Shown here: in pieces, positions 3,578 to 12,800 of the stretch | Position numbering within the stretch: the first letter of the stretch is position 1 | How the letters are laid out: each line of letters begins with the position of its first letter | From: Legionellales bacterium | GTDB lineage: Bacteria; Pseudomonadota; Gammaproteobacteria; Eutrophobiales; Eutrophobiaceae | Assembly: GCA_002721165.1 (NCBI GenBank) | Contig: PBJS01000024.1 | Span: forward strand, 1,918 to 65,917 | DNA length: 64,000 nt | Reading direction: 5' to 3' | Made by a program: the position numbers and the translations under genes | Notes under the pieces: generated by a model | Databases searched by the model: none | What the model saw: only the letters and a program-made list of their open reading frames with translations | What the model was told of the DNA's origin: nothing

Positions 3578-3669
3578 TGGCGGAGAGGGAGGGATTCGAA
3601 CCCTCGATACGGGATAAACCGTATACTCCCTTAGCAGGGGAGCGCCTTCAGCCACTCGGCCACCTCTCC
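3578..3669 (-). tRNA. serV: tRNA-Ser (anticodon GCU) with a long variable arm and encoded CCA
   Basis: Reverse complement folds as a cloverleaf. The 7-bp acceptor stem is GGAGAGG/CCTCTCC. The anticodon loop is CUGCUAA and the T-arm is GAGGG-TTCGAAT-CCCTC. It sits downstream of csrA, as in E. coli. Confidence 0.9.
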
Positions 3670-5271: not shown

Positions 5272-7878
5272 TTAGTTTTTAAGTTGGCTACGGACCCAAT
5301 CTGGAACTTTTGCTAAAGCACTTTCTAATTTCTTAGGATCATCGCCTCCGGCTTGTGCCATATCAGGACGTCCTCCCCCTCGCCCTCCAACCTGTTCTGC
5401 TACAAAATTTACCAAGTCACCCGCTTTAATGCGATTAGTCGTGTCGTCAGTAACGCCTGCAACTAAGCTCACCTTTGATTCATTAACAGTCGCAAGAATT
5501 AATACAGCTGTCCCAAGTTTATTTTTAAGCTGATCAACGGCATCACGAAGACTTTTCGGATCAGCAGTATCAATTGATTTAGCAACAATACTAATATCAT
5601 CAATTACAGTGGTTTCCTCAAGCAAATTTAAACCCGCATTGCTGGCTAATTTACCTCTAAGTTGTAATAACTCTTTTTCAAGTTTACGAGTTTTTTCAAG
5701 TTGTAAATTGAGTTTAGAGTCAACTGTTTCTACATTAGATTTCAATGATTCTGCCATTCGTTGTAACTTTGCTTCCATATTTTCAATCCAGACAAATGCT
5801 TCAAGGCCAGTAATTGCTTCAATACGCCTTACCCCTGAAGCTATACCTGATTCTGAAATAATTTTAAATACACCTATATCACCGGAACGTTCGACATGTG
5901 TCCCGCCACATAATTCACAAGAAAACTCCCCGCCAATATTTAACACCCTGACAGTATCTTCATATTTCTCACCAAATAATGATATCGCTCCTGATAATTT
6001 CGCTTTTTCGAGGGGCATAACCTGAATCTGAGTTTCATTATTCTCTAAAATTTTAGAATTCACTAGTTGCTCTATTTCCTTCAGTTGCTCATAAGTTAGT
6101 GATTCGTTATGTGAAAAATCAAATCGCAATCGATTGCTTTCAACTAGAGACCCTTTTTGTACAACGTGATCTCCTAGCATCTTTCTTAACGCAGCATGAA
6201 GTAAATGGGTGGCAGAATGATTACGTGCAACATCAGTTCGTATTTTTTGGTCGACTGAAGCACGAACAACATCACCCACTTTAAAAGTCCCTGTGCGTAG
6301 AATACCTAAATGAATATGTGACTGTCCTTGCTTTTTAGTATCTTCAACTTCAAAGAAAACATCGCCAGCAAATAATTCACCCTTATCACCAACTTGCCCC
6401 CCGGATTGCGCATAAAAGGGAGTCTCTAACAAAATTACGCCGCCGACATCACCTTCATTTAATTCTTTTACGTTTCTTCCGTCTTGGTAAAGCCCAATTA
6501 TTGTCGTCTTTTGCTCTAATCTTTCATATCCAGTAAATGCACTCACTAAGTTACTATCAGTATTAATAGAAACATCAATATCAAACTTACTTGCAGCCCG
6601 AGCTCGTTTTCGTTGTCCGGCCATAGCTTTGTTAAAACCCTTCATATCAACTTTCATATTTTTTTCACGGGCAATATCAGCTGTTAAATCTACTGGAAAT
6701 CCATAGGTATCATACAGACGAAAAACATCTTCGCCATGAATAACGTCACCTTTTGTTTTTGTAATAACTTCATCTAAAATTTTTAATCCTTGATCCAAAG
6801 TTTCAGCAAAACGCTCTTCCTCACTAAGCAACATGCTCTCGATATTTGATCTTGTTTTTGATAATTCAGGATAAGCATCGCCCATTTCTTCTTCAAGAAC
6901 CTCAACCAATTGATGAAAAAAAGGTTTTTTGAAGCCTAACTTATTACCATGTCGAATTGCACGGCGAATAATTCGTCGCAACACATAACCCCTACCCTCA
7001 TTAGAAGGAATTACACCGTCTGCCAATAAAAATGAACAAGATCGAATATGGTCAGCAACGACACGGCTAGAAGTTAAATCAATTTTTTTATTGCCACAAA
7101 GAGTTTTTATTTTTTTGATAATCTTTTCGAATGACTCAATTTCAAAATTATTATTAACTCCCTGCATGACGGCGGTAACTCTTTCGAGCCCCATTCCCGT
7201 GTCGACTGAAGGATGTGGGATAGGTGTTAATGAGCCGTCACTACCACGGTTAAATTGTGTAAACACTAAATTCCATATTTCAACATAACGATCTAAATCA
7301 GCGTCTTTAGACCCCGGAGGTCCACCAGGTATATCTTCGCCATGATCATAGAAAATTTCACTACACGGACCACAAGGTCCGGTGTCTCCTGCTGACCAGA
7401 AGTTATCTTTTTCGCCACAACGAGTAAATTGCTTTGATGAAACACCAATTTCTTTTAACCAAATATTAGCTGCCTCTTCATCGTCTTCAAAAACTGTTAT
7501 CCAAAGTTTAGACTCTGGAATTTTTAATACAGCTGTCAAATACTCCCAGGCATAAGTAATAGCATCTTGTTTGAAATAATCCCCGAAACTAAAATTCCCT
7601 AGCATTTCGAAAAACGTGTGGTGTCTTGCTGTGTATCCGACATTTTCTAGATCATTGTGTTTACCGCCGGCACGTACACAACGCTGCGATGATGCAGCTC
7701 GTTTGTATGGACGACTCTCTCTTCCAAGGAACACATCTTTAAACTGGACCATGCCCGCATTTGTAAATAACAGTGTTGGGTCATTTGCAGGGACCAAAGA
7801 ACTGCTTGGGACAATTTCATGATCTTTTGATTTGAAAAAATCCAGAAAGGATTGGCGGATGTCATTACTAGTCTTCAT
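5272..7878 (-). CDS. alaS: Alanine--tRNA ligase
   Basis: 868 aa. HHTFFEMLGNFSFGDYFK class II motif. C-terminal GGGRPDMAQAGG. Confidence 0.95.
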   Translation of the reverse strand: MKTSNDIRQSFLDFFKSKDHEIVPSSSLVPANDPTLLFTNAGMVQFKDVFLGRESRPYKRAASSQRCVRAGGKHNDLENVGYTARHHTFFEMLGNFSFGDYFKQDAITYAWEYLTAVLKIPESKLWITVFEDDEEAANIWLKEIGVSSKQFTRCGEKDNFWSAGDTGPCGPCSEIFYDHGEDIPGGPPGSKDADLDRYVEIWNLVFTQFNRGSDGSLTPIPHPSVDTGMGLERVTAVMQGVNNNFEIESFEKIIKKIKTLCGNKKIDLTSSRVVADHIRSCSFLLADGVIPSNEGRGYVLRRIIRRAIRHGNKLGFKKPFFHQLVEVLEEEMGDAYPELSKTRSNIESMLLSEEERFAETLDQGLKILDEVITKTKGDVIHGEDVFRLYDTYGFPVDLTADIAREKNMKVDMKGFNKAMAGQRKRARAASKFDIDVSINTDSNLVSAFTGYERLEQKTTIIGLYQDGRNVKELNEGDVGGVILLETPFYAQSGGQVGDKGELFAGDVFFEVEDTKKQGQSHIHLGILRTGTFKVGDVVRASVDQKIRTDVARNHSATHLLHAALRKMLGDHVVQKGSLVESNRLRFDFSHNESLTYEQLKEIEQLVNSKILENNETQIQVMPLEKAKLSGAISLFGEKYEDTVRVLNIGGEFSCELCGGTHVERSGDIGVFKIISESGIASGVRRIEAITGLEAFVWIENMEAKLQRMAESLKSNVETVDSKLNLQLEKTRKLEKELLQLRGKLASNAGLNLLEETTVIDDISIVAKSIDTADPKSLRDAVDQLKNKLGTAVLILATVNESKVSLVAGVTDDTTNRIKAGDLVNFVAEQVGGRGGGRPDMAQAGGDDPKKLESALAKVPDWVRSQLKN

Positions 7879-7888
7879 GAATGCCTAA

Positions 7889-8329
7889 TTATGACAAAAG
7901 TTGGCTAATTAGTTGACTGCTAAAACCCCTATTGAGTAAAAATCTTGATTGTTTTGATTTTTCCATACTATCGGAAGGAGGGTTTCCCCCAAACCTCTTA
8001 ACTCTAGCTGTCTCGGCTTGTGATAACCAGTCAACTGAGCATGCCTCGAGGTATTGTCTTATCACAGCTTTTGCTATGCCACGTTGCTGTAATTCCTGCT
8101 GAATTTTCAACGGCCCCTTCCCGCTACCAGCACGGTGATTTACGAAACTCTCTGCAAATCGTTCATCGCTTTGTAAGCCCTCGCTCGAGAGCTTATCCAA
8201 CAGCTCGTCAATTAATGTTTGGTCTTCACATGCCCTGGCAAGTTTGCGTGCTAATTCCTGACGGCTATGTTCTCTTCTTGCCAGAAAGTCACAAGCACGC
8301 TGTAAGACTTGTTGACGCTCTGTACTCAG
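7889..8329 (-). CDS. recX: Recombination regulator RecX
   Basis: The track ORF (7889..8200) starts at TTG. The frame stays open upstream to a TGA at 8360-8362 and encodes ...[17 protein letters not shown], a conserved RecX N-terminal motif. No ATG, GTG or TTG lies in that stretch. A CTG at 8327-8329 overlaps the recA stop (CTGA), so the start coordinate is uncertain. Confidence 0.7.
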
Positions 8330-9390
8330 ACTACTGCCTCCTCCTCTGTTTCTGTCTCTTCAGTTAATTCTTCAACTGGAATGGTCGGTAATAGTTTAGC
8401 CCGAATTTGCTCTTCTATTTCATTTGCAATCTCAGGGTTTTCTTTTAGGAAAACTCTCACATTATCTTTACCTTGGCCGATACGATCATCTTTATAGCTA
8501 TACCAAGCACCCGCCTTATCTACCAATCCTTCCTTGACGCCCAAATCAACTATCTCACCCTCACGAGAAATACCTTCATTATATAAAATACCGAACTCAG
8601 CCTGCTTAAATGGCGGGGCAATCTTGTTCTTGACGACTTTTACTCGTGTTTCGTTCCCTACCACTTCTTCGCCTTTCTTGATTGCGCCAATTCTACGAAT
8701 GTCTAAACGAACTGATGAATAAAATTTTAATGCGTTACCCCCTGTTGTGGTTTCGGGATTACCAAACATGACGCCTATCTTCATGCGAATTTGGTTAATA
8801 AAAATCACACAGCAATTTGCACGTTTTATATTTCCGGTTAATTTTCTTAAAGCTTGAGACATTAAGCGGGCGGCAAGACCCATATGAGAATCACCCATCT
8901 CACCCTCTATTTCTGCCCGAGGAACTAATGCTGCAACAGAATCAATTACAACCAATTCCACAGCACCACTGCGTACTAACATGTCGCAAATTTCAAGTGC
9001 CTGCTCTCCGGTGTCCGGCTGAGAGACCAGTAAGTCATTAATATTCACACCAAGTTTTTCAGCATAAACAGGATCCAGCGCATGTTCTGCATCAATAAAA
9101 GCACAGATCTTTCCCTGTTTTTGCGCTTCAGCAATTGCTGACAAAGTTAATGTCGTTTTACCAGATGATTCCGGTCCGTAAATTTCAACAACTCGACCAT
9201 AGGGTAATCCTCCTGCTCCCAAAGCAATATCAAGACCCAGCGAGCCGGTACTAACAGATGCAATTTTTGTGGCAGGCTGATCTCCCATTTTCATCACCGA
9301 GCCCTTACCAAATTGTTTTTCGATTTGGCTCAGTGCCATCGTTAACGCCTTTTTTTTGTCATCTCCAGTTTCTGTTGTCGCCATGTTCAT
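8326..9390 (-). CDS. recA: Recombinase RecA
   Basis: [12 protein letters not shown] Walker A motif. 354 aa. Strong AGGAGAA Shine-Dalgarno sequence upstream. Confidence 0.97.
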
Positions 9391-9427
9391 TTCTCCTATA
9401 TCGTTAAACTACCTTCATTTTGAATAG

Positions 9428-9456
9428 ACTATAGGGTATACTTTTATAGATGTCAA
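9428..9456 (-). promoter_or_regulatory. Candidate sigma70 promoter for recA (TTGACA, 17-nt spacer, TATAGT)
   Basis: On the minus strand, TTGACA lies at 9456-9451 and TATAGT at 9433-9428 with a 17-nt spacer, about 40 nt upstream of the recA ATG. The spacer contains repeated TATAG half-sites. Confidence 0.4.
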
Positions 9457-9553
9457 TACTTTTTATGACCTTTATATTTTTTACCATATCATAGATTTTA
9501 CTATGTTTTTCCTATTTTTTTGTATAATTCACTGAATTTCATAGGATTTAGTA

Positions 9554-10444
9554 ATGGCAAAACAAAAAGTAACGATGGATGAAATTAAGTGGGGTACACG
9601 GCAACGTCTGCAATATATCGAATTAATGGCGTTTTATGCCGGGGTAATTACGCGAAGTGATATTGCTAAGGCATTCGCTATCTCAGATGCGGCTGCGACT
9701 AAAGATTTAAAATTCTACAGTGAAATCGCACCCGATAATCTGATCTACAAACACAGCGTATTCGGCTTTGTCCCCAGTAGCTCATTTCGTGAGGTCTTCG
9801 CTGATTTATCACCAGCGGTGGCATTATCAATATTTGAAGCAAATTTTATTATCTCAAGCATTCCAAATATTGATAATCATATGTTTGGCATCCCTACTTC
9901 TGGATTAACCTTGCCAAACCGACTACCAAAAAAATCAGTGCTAGCACAAATTACTCGTTCTATATGTAGTAAGAAAAAATTAAAGGTTAGTTACCATTCA
10001 CTAACTGAAAAGGCACAGCCAACGAAAAGAATTATCGAGCCGCATTCGCTCGTCAACACGGGTTTTCGTTGGCATGTCCGCGCCTATAGTGAGGAGAGTT
10101 TTGATTTTCGGGATTTTGTCCTTTCCCGTTTTATAAGTGCAAAATGCCTTGATGATGAAGTCGAATCAAATGAATTATATGATGATGATTGGGTAGAAAT
10201 AATATCACTTGAACTCGCTCCTCATCCGAAACTTATTAAAGAAAAACAGAAAAGTTTACTGCTTGATTACAGTGCTAATAAAAATGTGATCAGCATTAAA
10301 GTAAGACGTGCGCTAATTGGGTACTTACTACAACAACTTTCTGTCGACACCACAATTGATCACTCATTAAATCCAAATAAATATCAACTTATTGTACTTA
10401 ATCGAGATGAAATCGAGCCTTTTGCGAGCTGGGCATTTGATTAG
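9554..10444 (+). CDS. HTH-WYL-WCX family transcriptional regulator (PafBC/DriD/BrxR/CapW-like)
   Basis: The N-terminus is a winged-HTH-like segment (SDIAKAFAISDAAATKDLKFY). The central motif GFRWHVRAYSEESFDFRDFVLSRF matches the WYL domain. A C-terminal extension follows. The gene is divergent from recA. Confidence 0.7.
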   Translation: MAKQKVTMDEIKWGTRQRLQYIELMAFYAGVITRSDIAKAFAISDAAATKDLKFYSEIAPDNLIYKHSVFGFVPSSSFREVFADLSPAVALSIFEANFIISSIPNIDNHMFGIPTSGLTLPNRLPKKSVLAQITRSICSKKKLKVSYHSLTEKAQPTKRIIEPHSLVNTGFRWHVRAYSEESFDFRDFVLSRFISAKCLDDEVESNELYDDDWVEIISLELAPHPKLIKEKQKSLLLDYSANKNVISIKVRRALIGYLLQQLSVDTTIDHSLNPNKYQLIVLNRDEIEPFASWAFD

Positions 10445-10464: not shown

Positions 10465-10734
10465 ATGAAAGAGTTTTGGTTTACACCTAAAAATTATGGC
10501 AATGGGTTCTACCCTTCTTCTTGGCAAGGATGGTTAATCATCCTAATTGCCCTTGCATTAATTTGTGCAGCTTTTTATCTCAGTAATCCTTTTGAATATA
10601 AAACAACTGAACAAGCCATAAATGATTGGCTACGTTTTATTATCGATTTTATCGTGATTCACACTGTATATTTTGTTCTTGTTAAAGATAGGGTAAAGGG
10701 TGGAGTGAGATGGCGTTGGGGGAAAGAAAATTAA
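10465..10734 (+). CDS. Small hypothetical inner-membrane protein (two predicted TM helices)
   Basis: Strong Shine-Dalgarno AGGAGG 6 nt upstream of the ATG, 20 nt after the WYL gene stop. Hydrophobic segments GWLIILIALALICAAFYL and FIIDFIVIHTVYFVLV. Confidence 0.65.
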   Translation: MKEFWFTPKNYGNGFYPSSWQGWLIILIALALICAAFYLSNPFEYKTTEQAINDWLRFIIDFIVIHTVYFVLVKDRVKGGVRWRWGKEN

Positions 10735-10743
10735 ACAATCTTT

Positions 10744-11241
10744 TTAATCTGAGGTCTTTTGCAGAATATCAAGCAGTCCTTGCATTGCTAAAAGACAAGA
10801 TTGCTCCCTTACTCTTCGACGGTCTCCTTCAAAATGAATGCACGTTGTATTACCACCCTTGTCTCTTTCGCACCATGCAACACAAACTGTCCCAACGGGT
10901 TTTTCTTCACTCCCCCCATCAGGCCCCGCAACTCCTGTAATTGAGACACTAAAATCTGCAGAACTCATATCAAGCGCACCTTTTGCCATAGCAAGCGCTG
11001 TCTCTTCGCTAACGGCACCAAATTCCTCCAGCGTATCAATGGGAACAGCTAAAAGATCCCGTTTTGATTGGTTTGAGTAAGTCACAAACCCGCATTCATA
11101 CCATAACGAACTACCAGGCAGCTGTGTTAAATTCTCTGCTAAGCCACCGCCTGTACATGATTCAGCGGTAACGAGTTTTTTTGAAGCTTTTAAAAATCGT
11201 TCAGCTAACTGTTCAACTAAAACTTGAGTGGCATTCGTCAT
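10744..11241 (-). CDS. pncC: NMN amidohydrolase PncC (CinA C-terminal domain protein, YgaD-like)
   Basis: 165 aa. TAESCTGGGLA and FVTYSN motifs. ITGVAGPDGGSEEKPVGTV aligns closely with E. coli YgaD. Confidence 0.9.
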   Translation of the reverse strand: MTNATQVLVEQLAERFLKASKKLVTAESCTGGGLAENLTQLPGSSLWYECGFVTYSNQSKRDLLAVPIDTLEEFGAVSEETALAMAKGALDMSSADFSVSITGVAGPDGGSEEKPVGTVCVAWCERDKGGNTTCIHFEGDRRRVREQSCLLAMQGLLDILQKTSD

Positions 11242-11699
11242 GACTTTTTTAATCTTTTTTCTTTAAAAAAATTTTTAATTAATGCTTGGCATTCTTTTTC
11301 TAAAACACCTTTTTTAATTTCAGTATTATGGTTTAATTCCTCTGCTTGAATCATATTAAAAACACTACCACATGCGCCTGTTTTTTGATCGTCAACAGCA
11401 TAAACAAGCTTTGCAATACGAGCATGGACCATAGCTCCTGCACACATAACACAAGGTTCAAGCGTGACATACATAGTAGAATCTAAAAGGCGATAGTTGC
11501 CAATTTTTTCTCCCGCATCTTGTAATGCCATAATCTCAGCATGCGCCGTGGGGTTATTTGATGAGATAGGTTGGTTCCAGCCCTCACCAATGATTTTATT
11601 TTTATAAACAATGATGGCGCCAACCGGTACCTCATCCCTCTCTTCAGATTTTTTAGCAAGCTGAAGTGCATATTGCATCCATTCTTCATCAATATTCAT
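11238..11699 (-). CDS. tadA: tRNA-specific adenosine deaminase TadA
   Basis: HAEIMAL and PCVMCAGAM zinc-deaminase motifs. 153 aa. Confidence 0.9.
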   Translation of the reverse strand: MNIDEEWMQYALQLAKKSEERDEVPVGAIIVYKNKIIGEGWNQPISSNNPTAHAEIMALQDAGEKIGNYRLLDSTMYVTLEPCVMCAGAMVHARIAKLVYAVDDQKTGACGSVFNMIQAEELNHNTEIKKGVLEKECQALIKNFFKEKRLKKS

Positions 11700-11714
11700 T
11701 AATTTATTTAATAG

Positions 11715-12446
11715 CTACGCAGATAATTTTTCATTTAACTTGATCTGTTCAGAAAAGCGTTTCTTACTTAATTCAATAAATTTTTTATCTATCTCAATGC
11801 CGATGTATTCTCTATTAGTGCGAATACATGAAACACCTGTTGTACCACTACCATTAAAAGCATCTAACACTAAATCACCCTCATTAGTTACGGCTAAAAT
11901 CAATCTATCTAATAAGGCAATGGGCTTTTGTGTTGGATGTTTATCATAAGTTTTTTCAGACTTGCCTGGTGCCGTCATCACCCACACATCTTTCATTTGT
12001 TTGTCATTATTTATTTCTTTCATCAATTCATAATTAAACTTATGTTTTGATTTAAGATTTTTAGCGGCCCAGATAATCGTTTCCGTACTATGTGTGAAAT
12101 AACGACAAGCTAGATTAGGCGGTGGGTTTGGTTTTTGCCAGGTTATATTGTTTAAAATTTTCATATTAAGTTGCTGCATTGCATAACCAATCGAATAAAT
12201 CACATGAAAAGTGCCGGAGACCATTAATGAACCGTTTGGCTTTAAGATTCTTTGGCATCTTTTTAACCATTCGTAATTAAATTGATGATTAACTTCGGCG
12301 CCATTTGATTTATCCCAATCACCCTTATCGACTTTTACCATGCGTCCATTCTGGCAAGTAATACCACCATTAGACAGAAAATATGGAGGATCGCAAAAAA
12401 TCAGATCAACAAACTCACCCCGCTCCTCGTAGAGTTTATCCATCAC
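11715..12446 (-). CDS. Beta-class N6-adenine DNA methyltransferase, CcrM/M.HinfI/YhdJ family, short form
   Basis: Motif IV DPPY lies N-terminal and motif I FNGSGTTG lies C-terminal. Long stretches align with CcrM (WLK..L...G...V.G..H; NITWQKPNPPPN; HPTQKPIALLDRLILAVTNEGDLVLDAFNGSGTTG). It lacks the CcrM C-terminal domain. Confidence 0.85.
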   Translation of the reverse strand: MMDKLYEERGEFVDLIFCDPPYFLSNGGITCQNGRMVKVDKGDWDKSNGAEVNHQFNYEWLKRCQRILKPNGSLMVSGTFHVIYSIGYAMQQLNMKILNNITWQKPNPPPNLACRYFTHSTETIIWAAKNLKSKHKFNYELMKEINNDKQMKDVWVMTAPGKSEKTYDKHPTQKPIALLDRLILAVTNEGDLVLDAFNGSGTTGVSCIRTNREYIGIEIDKKFIELSKKRFSEQIKLNEKLSA

Positions 12447-12494
12447 TTCTAAACAATTTCCTTCTATGAGTTTGATTTTTTTTACCTATTTTTT

Positions 12495-12800
12495 CTATTT
12501 AATATTTAAGCCTTCTTTTTTTAAAAGACTCTTTTTTTGCTTAATTCCACCTTTACCACTATAACCGCCTAGATAGCCATTTGAGCCAACTACTCTGTGA
12601 CATGGAATTTTAATAGGATATGGATTTTTGCCACAAGCATTAGCAACGGCTCTTATAGCTCTAGGTTTTTTTATAATTCTAGCTAGTTCTTTATAAGTTC
12701 TAACTTCACCTTTTGGGATTTTAGATATTGCCTTCCAAACTTTGACTTGAAACGCAGTGCCCTCTAATATCATCTTTGCCTCTATTCTCTTGCGACACAT
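12495..12800 (-). CDS. Minimal methylated-DNA--protein-cysteine methyltransferase (Ogt/MGMT C-terminal domain only)
   Basis: Active-site PCHRVV motif. TYKELA helix-turn-helix. 101 aa. Low GC and AGA-rich arginine codon usage. Confidence 0.8.
   Translation of the reverse strand: MCRKRIEAKMILEGTAFQVKVWKAISKIPKGEVRTYKELARIIKKPRAIRAVANACGKNPYPIKIPCHRVVGSNGYLGGYSGKGGIKQKKSLLKKEGLNIK

Follow-up and report, generated by a model that had tools for sequence, protein, structure and literature searches.

The locus lies within a window of 64 kb (the whole stretch of DNA that was analysed) and is built around two genes pointing away from each other, namely, recA on the reverse strand (8326..9384, 352 aa when counted from the ATG at 9384, matching TIGR02012 at E = 1.9e-173) and a gene encoding a 296-aa WYL-domain regulator on the forward strand (9554..10444), with the 163 bp between them accommodating two back-to-back promoters around a 75-bp core. 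The G+C content of this intergenic region is 24%, that of the window 37%. Downstream of recA follows recX (7889..8200, reverse strand, Pfam RecX_HTH2 and RecX_HTH3), which keeps this position in all of the related loci retaining that flank, and downstream of recX lies alaS (5272-7878). The start of recA is itself somewhat ambiguous, as gene callers split between a product of 352 aa and one of 354 aa (from the ATG at 9390, reverse strand) on identical contigs. The ATG at 9384 is the likelier one because the ribosome-binding site AGGAGAA (9397-9391, reverse strand, by direct sequence reading) lies 8 nt away from it vs 2 nt for the ATG at 9390, and it is also the start used by two of the three full-length recA gene calls, which come from identical Tara Oceans marine metagenome contigs.

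A near-consensus sigma70 promoter on the recA strand, already pointed out in the initial annotation, is indeed present and conserved: the -35 hexamer TTGACA (9456..9451, reverse strand), a 17-nt spacer and the -10 hexamer TATAGT (9433..9428, reverse strand) together agree with the consensus at 11 of 12 positions, with the end of the -10 being 37 nt (ATG 9390) or 43 nt (ATG 9384) from the start codon, and the promoter geometry predicts transcription to start from the A at 9421 (9420..9422, reverse strand), 7 nt past the -10. When 77 non-redundant orthologous intergenic regions were aligned gap-free and anchored on TCAATA, TTGACA was found to be exact in 74 of them, the -10 followed the pattern TAnAnT across all 77 (with T1, A2 and T6 being invariant), the 17-bp spacing was fixed, and core positions -33..-31, around the predicted recA start, were conserved as well. 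A promoter having such a near-consensus -35, a fixed 17-bp spacer and a TAnAnT -10 should need no activator. The spacer itself contains an element, ATAC.TTT (here ATACTTTT, 9438..9445), whose positions (-15..-8) carry 0.9-1.8 bit each among the 77 orthologs, and, since promoter spacers are not usually conserved in sequence, we infer that a protein contacts the DNA there.

Neither CTGT nor ACAG occurs anywhere in the 163-bp intergenic region, just as had been claimed, and the complete box CTGT-N8-ACAG is absent from the whole 64-kb window, although both words are also missing in 53% of dinucleotide shuffles and 0.7 boxes would be expected in the window, so that neither absence is significant when taken alone. 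What makes the absence meaningful is that none of the 77 orthologous recA upstream regions, those of G+C-rich genomes included, has a LexA box of the Beta/Gamma, Alpha or Gram-positive type, with one mismatch to CTGT-N8-ACAG being tolerated in just two hits among the 77 regions, both outside the core. A tblastn search with E. coli LexA (E <= 1) likewise returned no LexA homolog from the window or from 86 loci, sequence that represents a small fraction of each genome. The conclusion of the initial annotation that recA is not under classical SOS control can thus be upheld, at the recA promoter only. LexA sites are palindromes of approximately 16 bp, and no such palindrome is seen in the core, which argues against recA still being under LexA by way of a non-canonical operator located there, with the WYL protein being an additional or an unrelated player. 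This scenario draws on the divergent LexA motifs known from several phyla (PMC3108266) and is, in our opinion, quite improbable, given the lack of canonical boxes in the 77 regions, the failure to find a LexA homolog in the window or the fetched loci, and the report that LexA homologs are lacking in two related families, Nitrosomonadaceae and Chromatiaceae (Cambray et al., PMC3108266). The Thiobacillus, Chromatiales and Ectothiorhodospiraceae that carry the module described here are relatives of these two families, and this kinship, as a hint of LexA being absent from them too, is suggestive only.

The initial annotation had also proposed that repeated YATAGA/TATAG elements within this region could be an operator for the adjacent WYL regulator. 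Their enrichment is real, as seven YATAG copies are found on the two strands of the 163 bp, where 1.5 +/- 1.1 would be expected and none of 2000 shuffles reaches seven; conservation in relatives, which that annotation had itself named as the test of the idea, is, however, where the repeats failed. The copy at 9445 is kept in one and the copy at 9490 in two of the 77 orthologous regions, both sit at variable positions and have disappeared even from relatives with an 82-93% identical regulator, while the copy at 9430 (19 of 77) is nothing but the opposite-strand reading of the recA -10 hexamer, and the copies at 9491 and 9445 overlap conserved units in part, with their G not being conserved. As this lack of conservation extends to the nearest relatives, the repeats can be rejected as the operator, and their enrichment may be a by-product of the TA-rich units dealt with below or a strain-specific feature. 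The other half of the proposal, that the regulator has an operator here, is strongly backed by the gene order and by the 75-bp core.

This AT-rich core (9428..9502), the presumed operator array together with both -35 boxes, averages 1.10 bit per position over the 77 regions vs 0.16-0.17 in the flanks, and is common to more than 100 bacteria, including ones whose genomes have a G+C content of 55-66%; the core itself has a mean G+C content of 21%, and 24% in the 28 loci above 55% G+C. Judged from the alignment, its conserved elements are ATA-W5-TAY units, the stretch TGTCAATA...TAYCACCT and the ATAC.TTT in the recA spacer. The most conserved of them is the unit S_B, which overlaps the recA -35 (with its flanks TGTCAATA-CTTTT-TATGACCT, 9451..9471; ATA-W5-TAY core 9456-9466): TGTCAATA is found in 74 of the 77 loci, A15 and T18 in 76, the ACCT block (9468-9471) is nearly invariant, and S_B is kept even in a relative (L122) whose regulator is 43% identical. 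Midway between both promoters lies S_C (ATATTTTTTAC, 9474..9484), having near-invariant TA pairs at core positions 22/23 and 29/30 and a 5-bp centre that is ~95% A/T, whereas S_D (ATAGATTTTAC, 9491..9501) coincides in part with the -35 region of the regulator promoter and largely keeps its TA pairs at core positions 39/40 and 46/47 (T39 in 70, A40 in 58, T46 in 71 and A47 in 70 of 77), its left half TNRTA mirroring the TAYNA halves of the other two units.

Centred at 9461, 9479 and 9496, the three ATA-W5-TAY units are 18 and 17 bp apart, and the strongest self-similarity of the core is an 18-bp direct period; groupings of the TA steps centred at 8/26/43 or at 17/34.5 fit equally well. No long palindrome of the BrxR/CapW type (19-25 bp) is present in the core, the best symmetry found by scanning being weak, with no more than 61% of pairs complementary. 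In S_B and S_C, the 5-bp centres are 90-95% A/T and change from T-rich to A-rich jointly in 20 loci, a behaviour that suggests readout of DNA shape. The ATA-W5-TAY pattern alone is not enriched in the window (16 matches vs 13.8 expected), and the matrix built from the whole core finds a single match there, the core itself. Searches of the window and of ~700 kb of related loci with position-weight matrices revealed no second copy of the core or of S_B, with two partial copies of the same control region being the sole extra matches; this DNA holds few repair genes, and the window offers no other repair-gene promoters in which regulon sites could be sought, so that there may be a wider regulon beyond recA.

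On the regulator side of the core, a -10 hexamer TATAAT (9523..9528, forward strand) is found, which in the orthologs is located 65-71 bp from the anchor and reads TATAAT in 53 and TATACT in 18 of the 77, and the gene has a ribosome-binding site, AGGA, at 9543-9546. The candidate -35, TTTACT (9497..9502, forward strand, four of six positions matching), was placed by its distance to the -10, leaving a spacer of 18-20 bp, and the Thiobacillus clade shows TTGTAT at that place with a 16-bp spacer. With the -10 at this distance from the anchor, the regulator -35 falls on the third unit, S_D, and, as S_B covers the recA -35, the arrangement amounts to one unit per -35 with S_C in between. In the spacer of the regulator promoter of four loci (L012, L015, L016 and L027), there is also a 7-bp inverted repeat, ATCAGGC...GYYTGAT, followed by TTTTG; it lies ~50-70 bp to the right of the TCAATA anchor (fold z-score < -3, 9 of 73 loci), and no such hairpin is present in the window. 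The recA/regulator intergenic region contains no Rfam RNA family, the sole Rfam match in the window being a tRNA gene (3581-3669, reverse strand).

The regulator is, by its Pfam domains and PDB matches, a BrxR/CapW-type protein with a winged helix-turn-helix (wHTH), a WYL and a WCX domain: PF26109 (WHD_BrxR), PF13280 (WYL, E = 1.9e-12) and PF26107 (BrxR_CTD) reproduce the N-terminal wHTH, WYL and C-terminal WCX architecture of BrxR and CapW. A profile of its family matches the BrxR structures 7t8k (E = 4e-45) and 7qfz and the CapW structures 7tb5, 7tb6 and 9c5g (E ~1e-31) over the full length, as opposed to PafBC, matched over the WYL domain only (E = 1.6e-5), and DriD, for which no profile match was obtained at E <= 0.1. 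Foldseek ranks these proteins in much the same way (BrxR 3e-17 and BrxR/CapW ~1e-16 vs PafBC 5e-8 and DriD 2e-6), with the query being a low-confidence model: the AlphaFold prediction for the regulator is poor (pLDDT 57.5), and its domain geometry is not analysable. On the strength of these sequence comparisons, the regulator belongs to the BrxR/CapW repressor clade and not to the DriD, DdaA or PafBC clades. No NCBIfam model exists for it, and PADLOC yields generic WYL matches only.

Residues S149, R172, R176 and R192 of the regulator align with S144, R164, R168 and R184 of CapW, RWHVR included, so the conserved basic ligand pocket of CapW (a Ser, RWHVR and a distal Arg) is present here as well, and S149, RWHVR (R172-R176) and R192 are invariant in 18 family members. 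Wherever S_B is retained, the recognition helix SDAAATKDLK is retained with it, down to an overall identity of 43%; as the base-contacting SRQQ of BrxR corresponds to SDAA in the regulator, the two would differ in DNA specificity. The regulator is 60-75% identical across Gamma- and Betaproteobacteria, and, when compared with 1.84 billion 50%-identity representatives, its family forms essentially one cluster, beyond which there are a few intermediates at 38-52% identity and then a broad BrxR/CapW continuum at 30-37%. The 43%-identical relative mentioned above (L122, also P0124) comes from a metagenome locus in which the gene is still divergent to recA, and it keeps the recognition helix and S_B, with the right half of the core having diverged, but has lost three of the four single-stranded-DNA contacts (RWHVR is changed to HWYAR and R192 to H, and there is a gap at S149); judging from these changes, it may be a variant that is blind to the ligand or controlled in another way.

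When one genome per GTDB species was scanned, 469 species were seen to carry a relative of the regulator, and the linkage was counted in the best 80 loci of that scan and in 42 added metagenome loci. Among the 80, 76 have the regulator gene divergent to recA-recX, the BLAST matches lying 160-456 bp apart; three of the remaining four loci end upstream of the regulator (two of these retain upstream sequence, and both carry the S_B motif at the edge) and one, L042, is rearranged. In the metagenome set, the gene is divergent to recA in 37 of the 42 loci, with the other five being cut off. The linkage is found in Gammaproteobacteria (Legionellales-like bacteria, Thiotrichaceae, Chromatiales, Ectothiorhodospiraceae) as well as in Betaproteobacteria (Thiobacillus denitrificans, T. 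thioparus, Hydrogenophilales), and the nearest species genomes, MAGs bearing the label “uncultured Legionellales bacterium”, have regulators 82-93% identical to that of the window. Just past the regulator gene, on the recA strand, there is usually cinA/pncC. In E. coli, the order of these genes is pncC-recA-recX-alaS, by comparison with which the regulator gene appears to have been inserted between pncC and recA. Neither the window nor any of 113 related loci has phage-defence genes adjoining the regulator, its neighbours being recA, recX, alaS and cinA. In L042 (3600-4020 of OZ253445.1), the sole locus with enough flank in which the regulator gene stands apart from recA, the regulator-side part of the core and TATAAT are retained and the recA-side half is gone, so the breakpoint must have been inside the control region.

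Could the two genes be neighbours and nothing more, with the WYL protein regulating its own gene or distant targets, and the core, kept by synteny, being a strong recA promoter combined with an UP element and sites for general DNA-bending proteins? The A/T tracts upstream of the -35 do flip their orientation between clades in the manner of a shape or UP-element signal, the core is devoid of a long palindrome, and neither the window nor the ~700 kb of related loci yielded a second operator copy that would help to define the specificity of the protein. Two proteobacterial classes have, however, kept the linkage, with a single rearranged exception and amid otherwise varying neighbours; invariant TA steps and an ACCT block go beyond the specificity of an UP element; the core continues unbroken into the -35 of the regulator gene; conservation of the recognition helix goes hand in hand with that of S_B; and where recA has moved away, as in L042, the recA-side half of the core has gone. 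Such mere adjacency is thus an unlikely explanation.

Instead, we infer, at a probability of roughly 60% and with binding, repression and signal all included in the inference, that the regulator is a dedicated, self-regulated WYL repressor of recA that is released by single-stranded DNA; the core would, most likely, be what lets a single-stranded-DNA-sensing repressor, and not LexA, switch recA on after damage. In an undamaged cell, one or more regulator dimers would sit on the core, contacting the ATA-W5-TAY units 17-18 bp apart, TGTCAATA...TAYCACCT and the ATAC.TTT in the recA spacer, and would thereby keep RNA polymerase from both the recA and the regulator promoters. DNA damage or stalled replication would then produce single-stranded DNA, its binding in the WYL pocket would make the wHTH domains part as they do in CapW, the regulator would come off the DNA, and recA would be derepressed together with the regulator gene. 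A circuit of this kind would play the role of LexA at recA without RecA-driven self-cleavage.

The case for such a repressor is made by the family membership and pocket residues of the protein, by the strength of the promoter, by the conserved bases that cover both -35 boxes and the recA spacer, by the co-conservation of the recognition helix and S_B, by a linkage of regulator and recA that spans Gamma- and Betaproteobacteria, and by the lack of any competing LexA, DdaA, DriD or PafBC motif in the 77 regions. CapW and BrxR are both repressors (PMC9122588, PMC9122589), and CapW, whose gene and target are transcribed away from each other, acts as a repressor on both sides (PMC9122588); single-stranded DNA, contacted through S144, R164, R168 and R184 (RWHVR included) in the WYL pocket, parts the CapW wHTH domains and takes the protein off duplex DNA after damage (PMC11662680). 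BrxR binds a site that overlaps a -35 and whose A:T-rich 5-bp centre shows a narrowing of the minor groove (PMC9122589). What speaks against a repressor is that a palindrome of 19-25 bp is lacking and an 18-bp direct period dominates instead, that the ATA-W5-TAY unit by itself shows no enrichment in the window, that an UP element or a nucleoid-protein site could account for some of the A/T-rich conservation upstream of the recA -35, that the AlphaFold model is of poor quality, and that the WYL regulators which do control recA, PafBC and DdaA, are activators.

PafBC-type promoters are without a -35, unlike the recA promoter here, for which 74 of the 77 orthologs combine the consensus -35 with the optimal spacer length of 17 bp, and this is one reason for considering it rather unlikely that the WYL protein binds upstream of the recA -35 and, once loaded with single-stranded DNA, stimulates transcription as DdaA, DriD and PafBC do. 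Further ones are the placement of the regulator in the BrxR/CapW repressor clade instead of the DriD/DdaA/PafBC clades, the conserved bases within the recA spacer (9438-9445), and the fact that DdaA, DriD and PafBC motifs occur in none of the 77 regions. An activator would, on the other hand, be in keeping with the unit centres lying at about -40, -58 and -75 relative to the predicted start, which are typical class I/II activator positions, and with all WYL regulators shown to control DNA-damage genes, recA included, being activators (PMC12392091, PMC13010146, PMC9186387, PMC8635444).

The proposed recA repressor can be compared with CapW, with which it shares the three-domain architecture, the full-length match (E ~1e-31), the divergent gene, the shared two-way promoter (PMC9122588) and the pocket residues (S, RWHVR, R), CapW itself being released by single-stranded DNA arising from damage (PMC11662680). 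The two differ in that the target here is the housekeeping recA-recX and that of CapW a CBASS anti-phage operon, in that their sequence identity is just ~30%, and in that the regulator family is unusually uniform (one cluster at 50% identity); moreover, CapW sites are single imperfect palindromes of 19-24 bp over the -10, whereas here a 75-bp array of short AT-rich units extends over both -35 boxes. BrxR provides the best match to a solved structure (7t8k, E = 4e-45 with the family profile), and its -35-overlapping site, with a 5-bp A:T centre read by shape (PMC9122589), resembles the W5 centres, but its base-contacting residues are SRQQ and not SDAA, its site consists of two 10-bp half-sites matching at 9 of 10 positions, a symmetry that is absent here, and it belongs to BREX/defence islands, in contrast to the lack of nearby defence genes at this locus.

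As for the LexA/RecA SOS system, the likeness that we propose is that of a self-regulated repressor over a strong recA promoter relieved by single-stranded DNA; the regulator is, however, unrelated to LexA and has no S24 peptidase domain, CTGT-N8-ACAG is absent, and the circuit is, within the DNA searched, local to recA and not a regulon. The signal would also be sensed by the repressor directly and not via a RecA filament and self-cleavage, so the response could be reversed without any need for new synthesis. DdaA (Moraxellaceae), DriD (Caulobacter) and PafBC (Actinobacteria) are, like the protein proposed here, LexA-independent WYL regulators sensing single-stranded DNA, and DdaA and PafBC both act on recA; they differ in being activators from separate WYL clades that are not encoded beside recA and control regulons, and their motifs (CGWCA-N5-TGWCG, CGAC-N7-GTCG and TGTCGG-N8-TAnnnT) are absent here. 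Full-text searches of the literature found WYL control of DNA-damage genes described only for PafBC, DriD, SiwR and DdaA, and BrxR/CapW-type repressors only at defence systems, with no recA-adjacent member among them. The sensor module and the repression logic are thus known, while recA as the target, the dedicated and highly conserved clade, and the presumed non-palindromic multi-unit operator are new.

Taken to its full extent, the proposal would be that this BrxR/CapW-type clade acts as a dedicated recA master switch, a RecA-independent and LexA-free “mini-SOS”, in at least ~470 species of Beta- and Gammaproteobacteria, a generalization to which we would tentatively give slightly less than even odds. 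If it is true, it could explain how LexA-less lineages, meaning the relatives of Nitrosomonadaceae and Chromatiaceae and the marine Legionellales-like bacteria, are still able to induce recA, and it would connect phage-defence island regulators with a regulator of DNA repair, be it ancestral or co-opted. Control of recA without LexA or LexA boxes has been solved singly by PafBC in Actinobacteria, DriD in Caulobacter and DdaA in Moraxellaceae, and the module would represent a fourth solution, this time a repressor from a family otherwise known only at anti-phage systems. The system is compact and testable (one 296-aa protein and a presumed operator of 75 bp, with the cultivable Thiobacillus denitrificans and T. 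thioparus among its carriers), the conserved recognition helix and core make it a clean case for studying wHTH-WYL-WCX dimers on non-palindromic AT-rich DNA, and several hundred entries currently annotated as “WYL domain-containing protein” would gain a specific name.

Some further observations concern the surroundings of the module in the window. Directly after the regulator gene, there is an 89-aa hydrophobic ORF (10465-10734, forward strand) that has no Pfam match and is found only in the closest clade (L007-L011), being absent from all the other loci. Beyond it, a run of DNA-modification/repair-type genes (10744-12800, reverse strand) stands beside the module and consists of a CinA/PncC-like gene (10744-11241), a tadA-like deaminase gene (11238-11699), an orphan N6/N4 DNA methyltransferase gene (11715-12446) and a gene for a 101-aa MGMT-type DNA_binding_1 protein (12495-12800), all on the reverse strand. 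Much further along, a long block on the reverse strand (36500-62000) resembles, by the sizes and order of its ORFs only, the rpoB/rpoC and ribosomal-protein operons.
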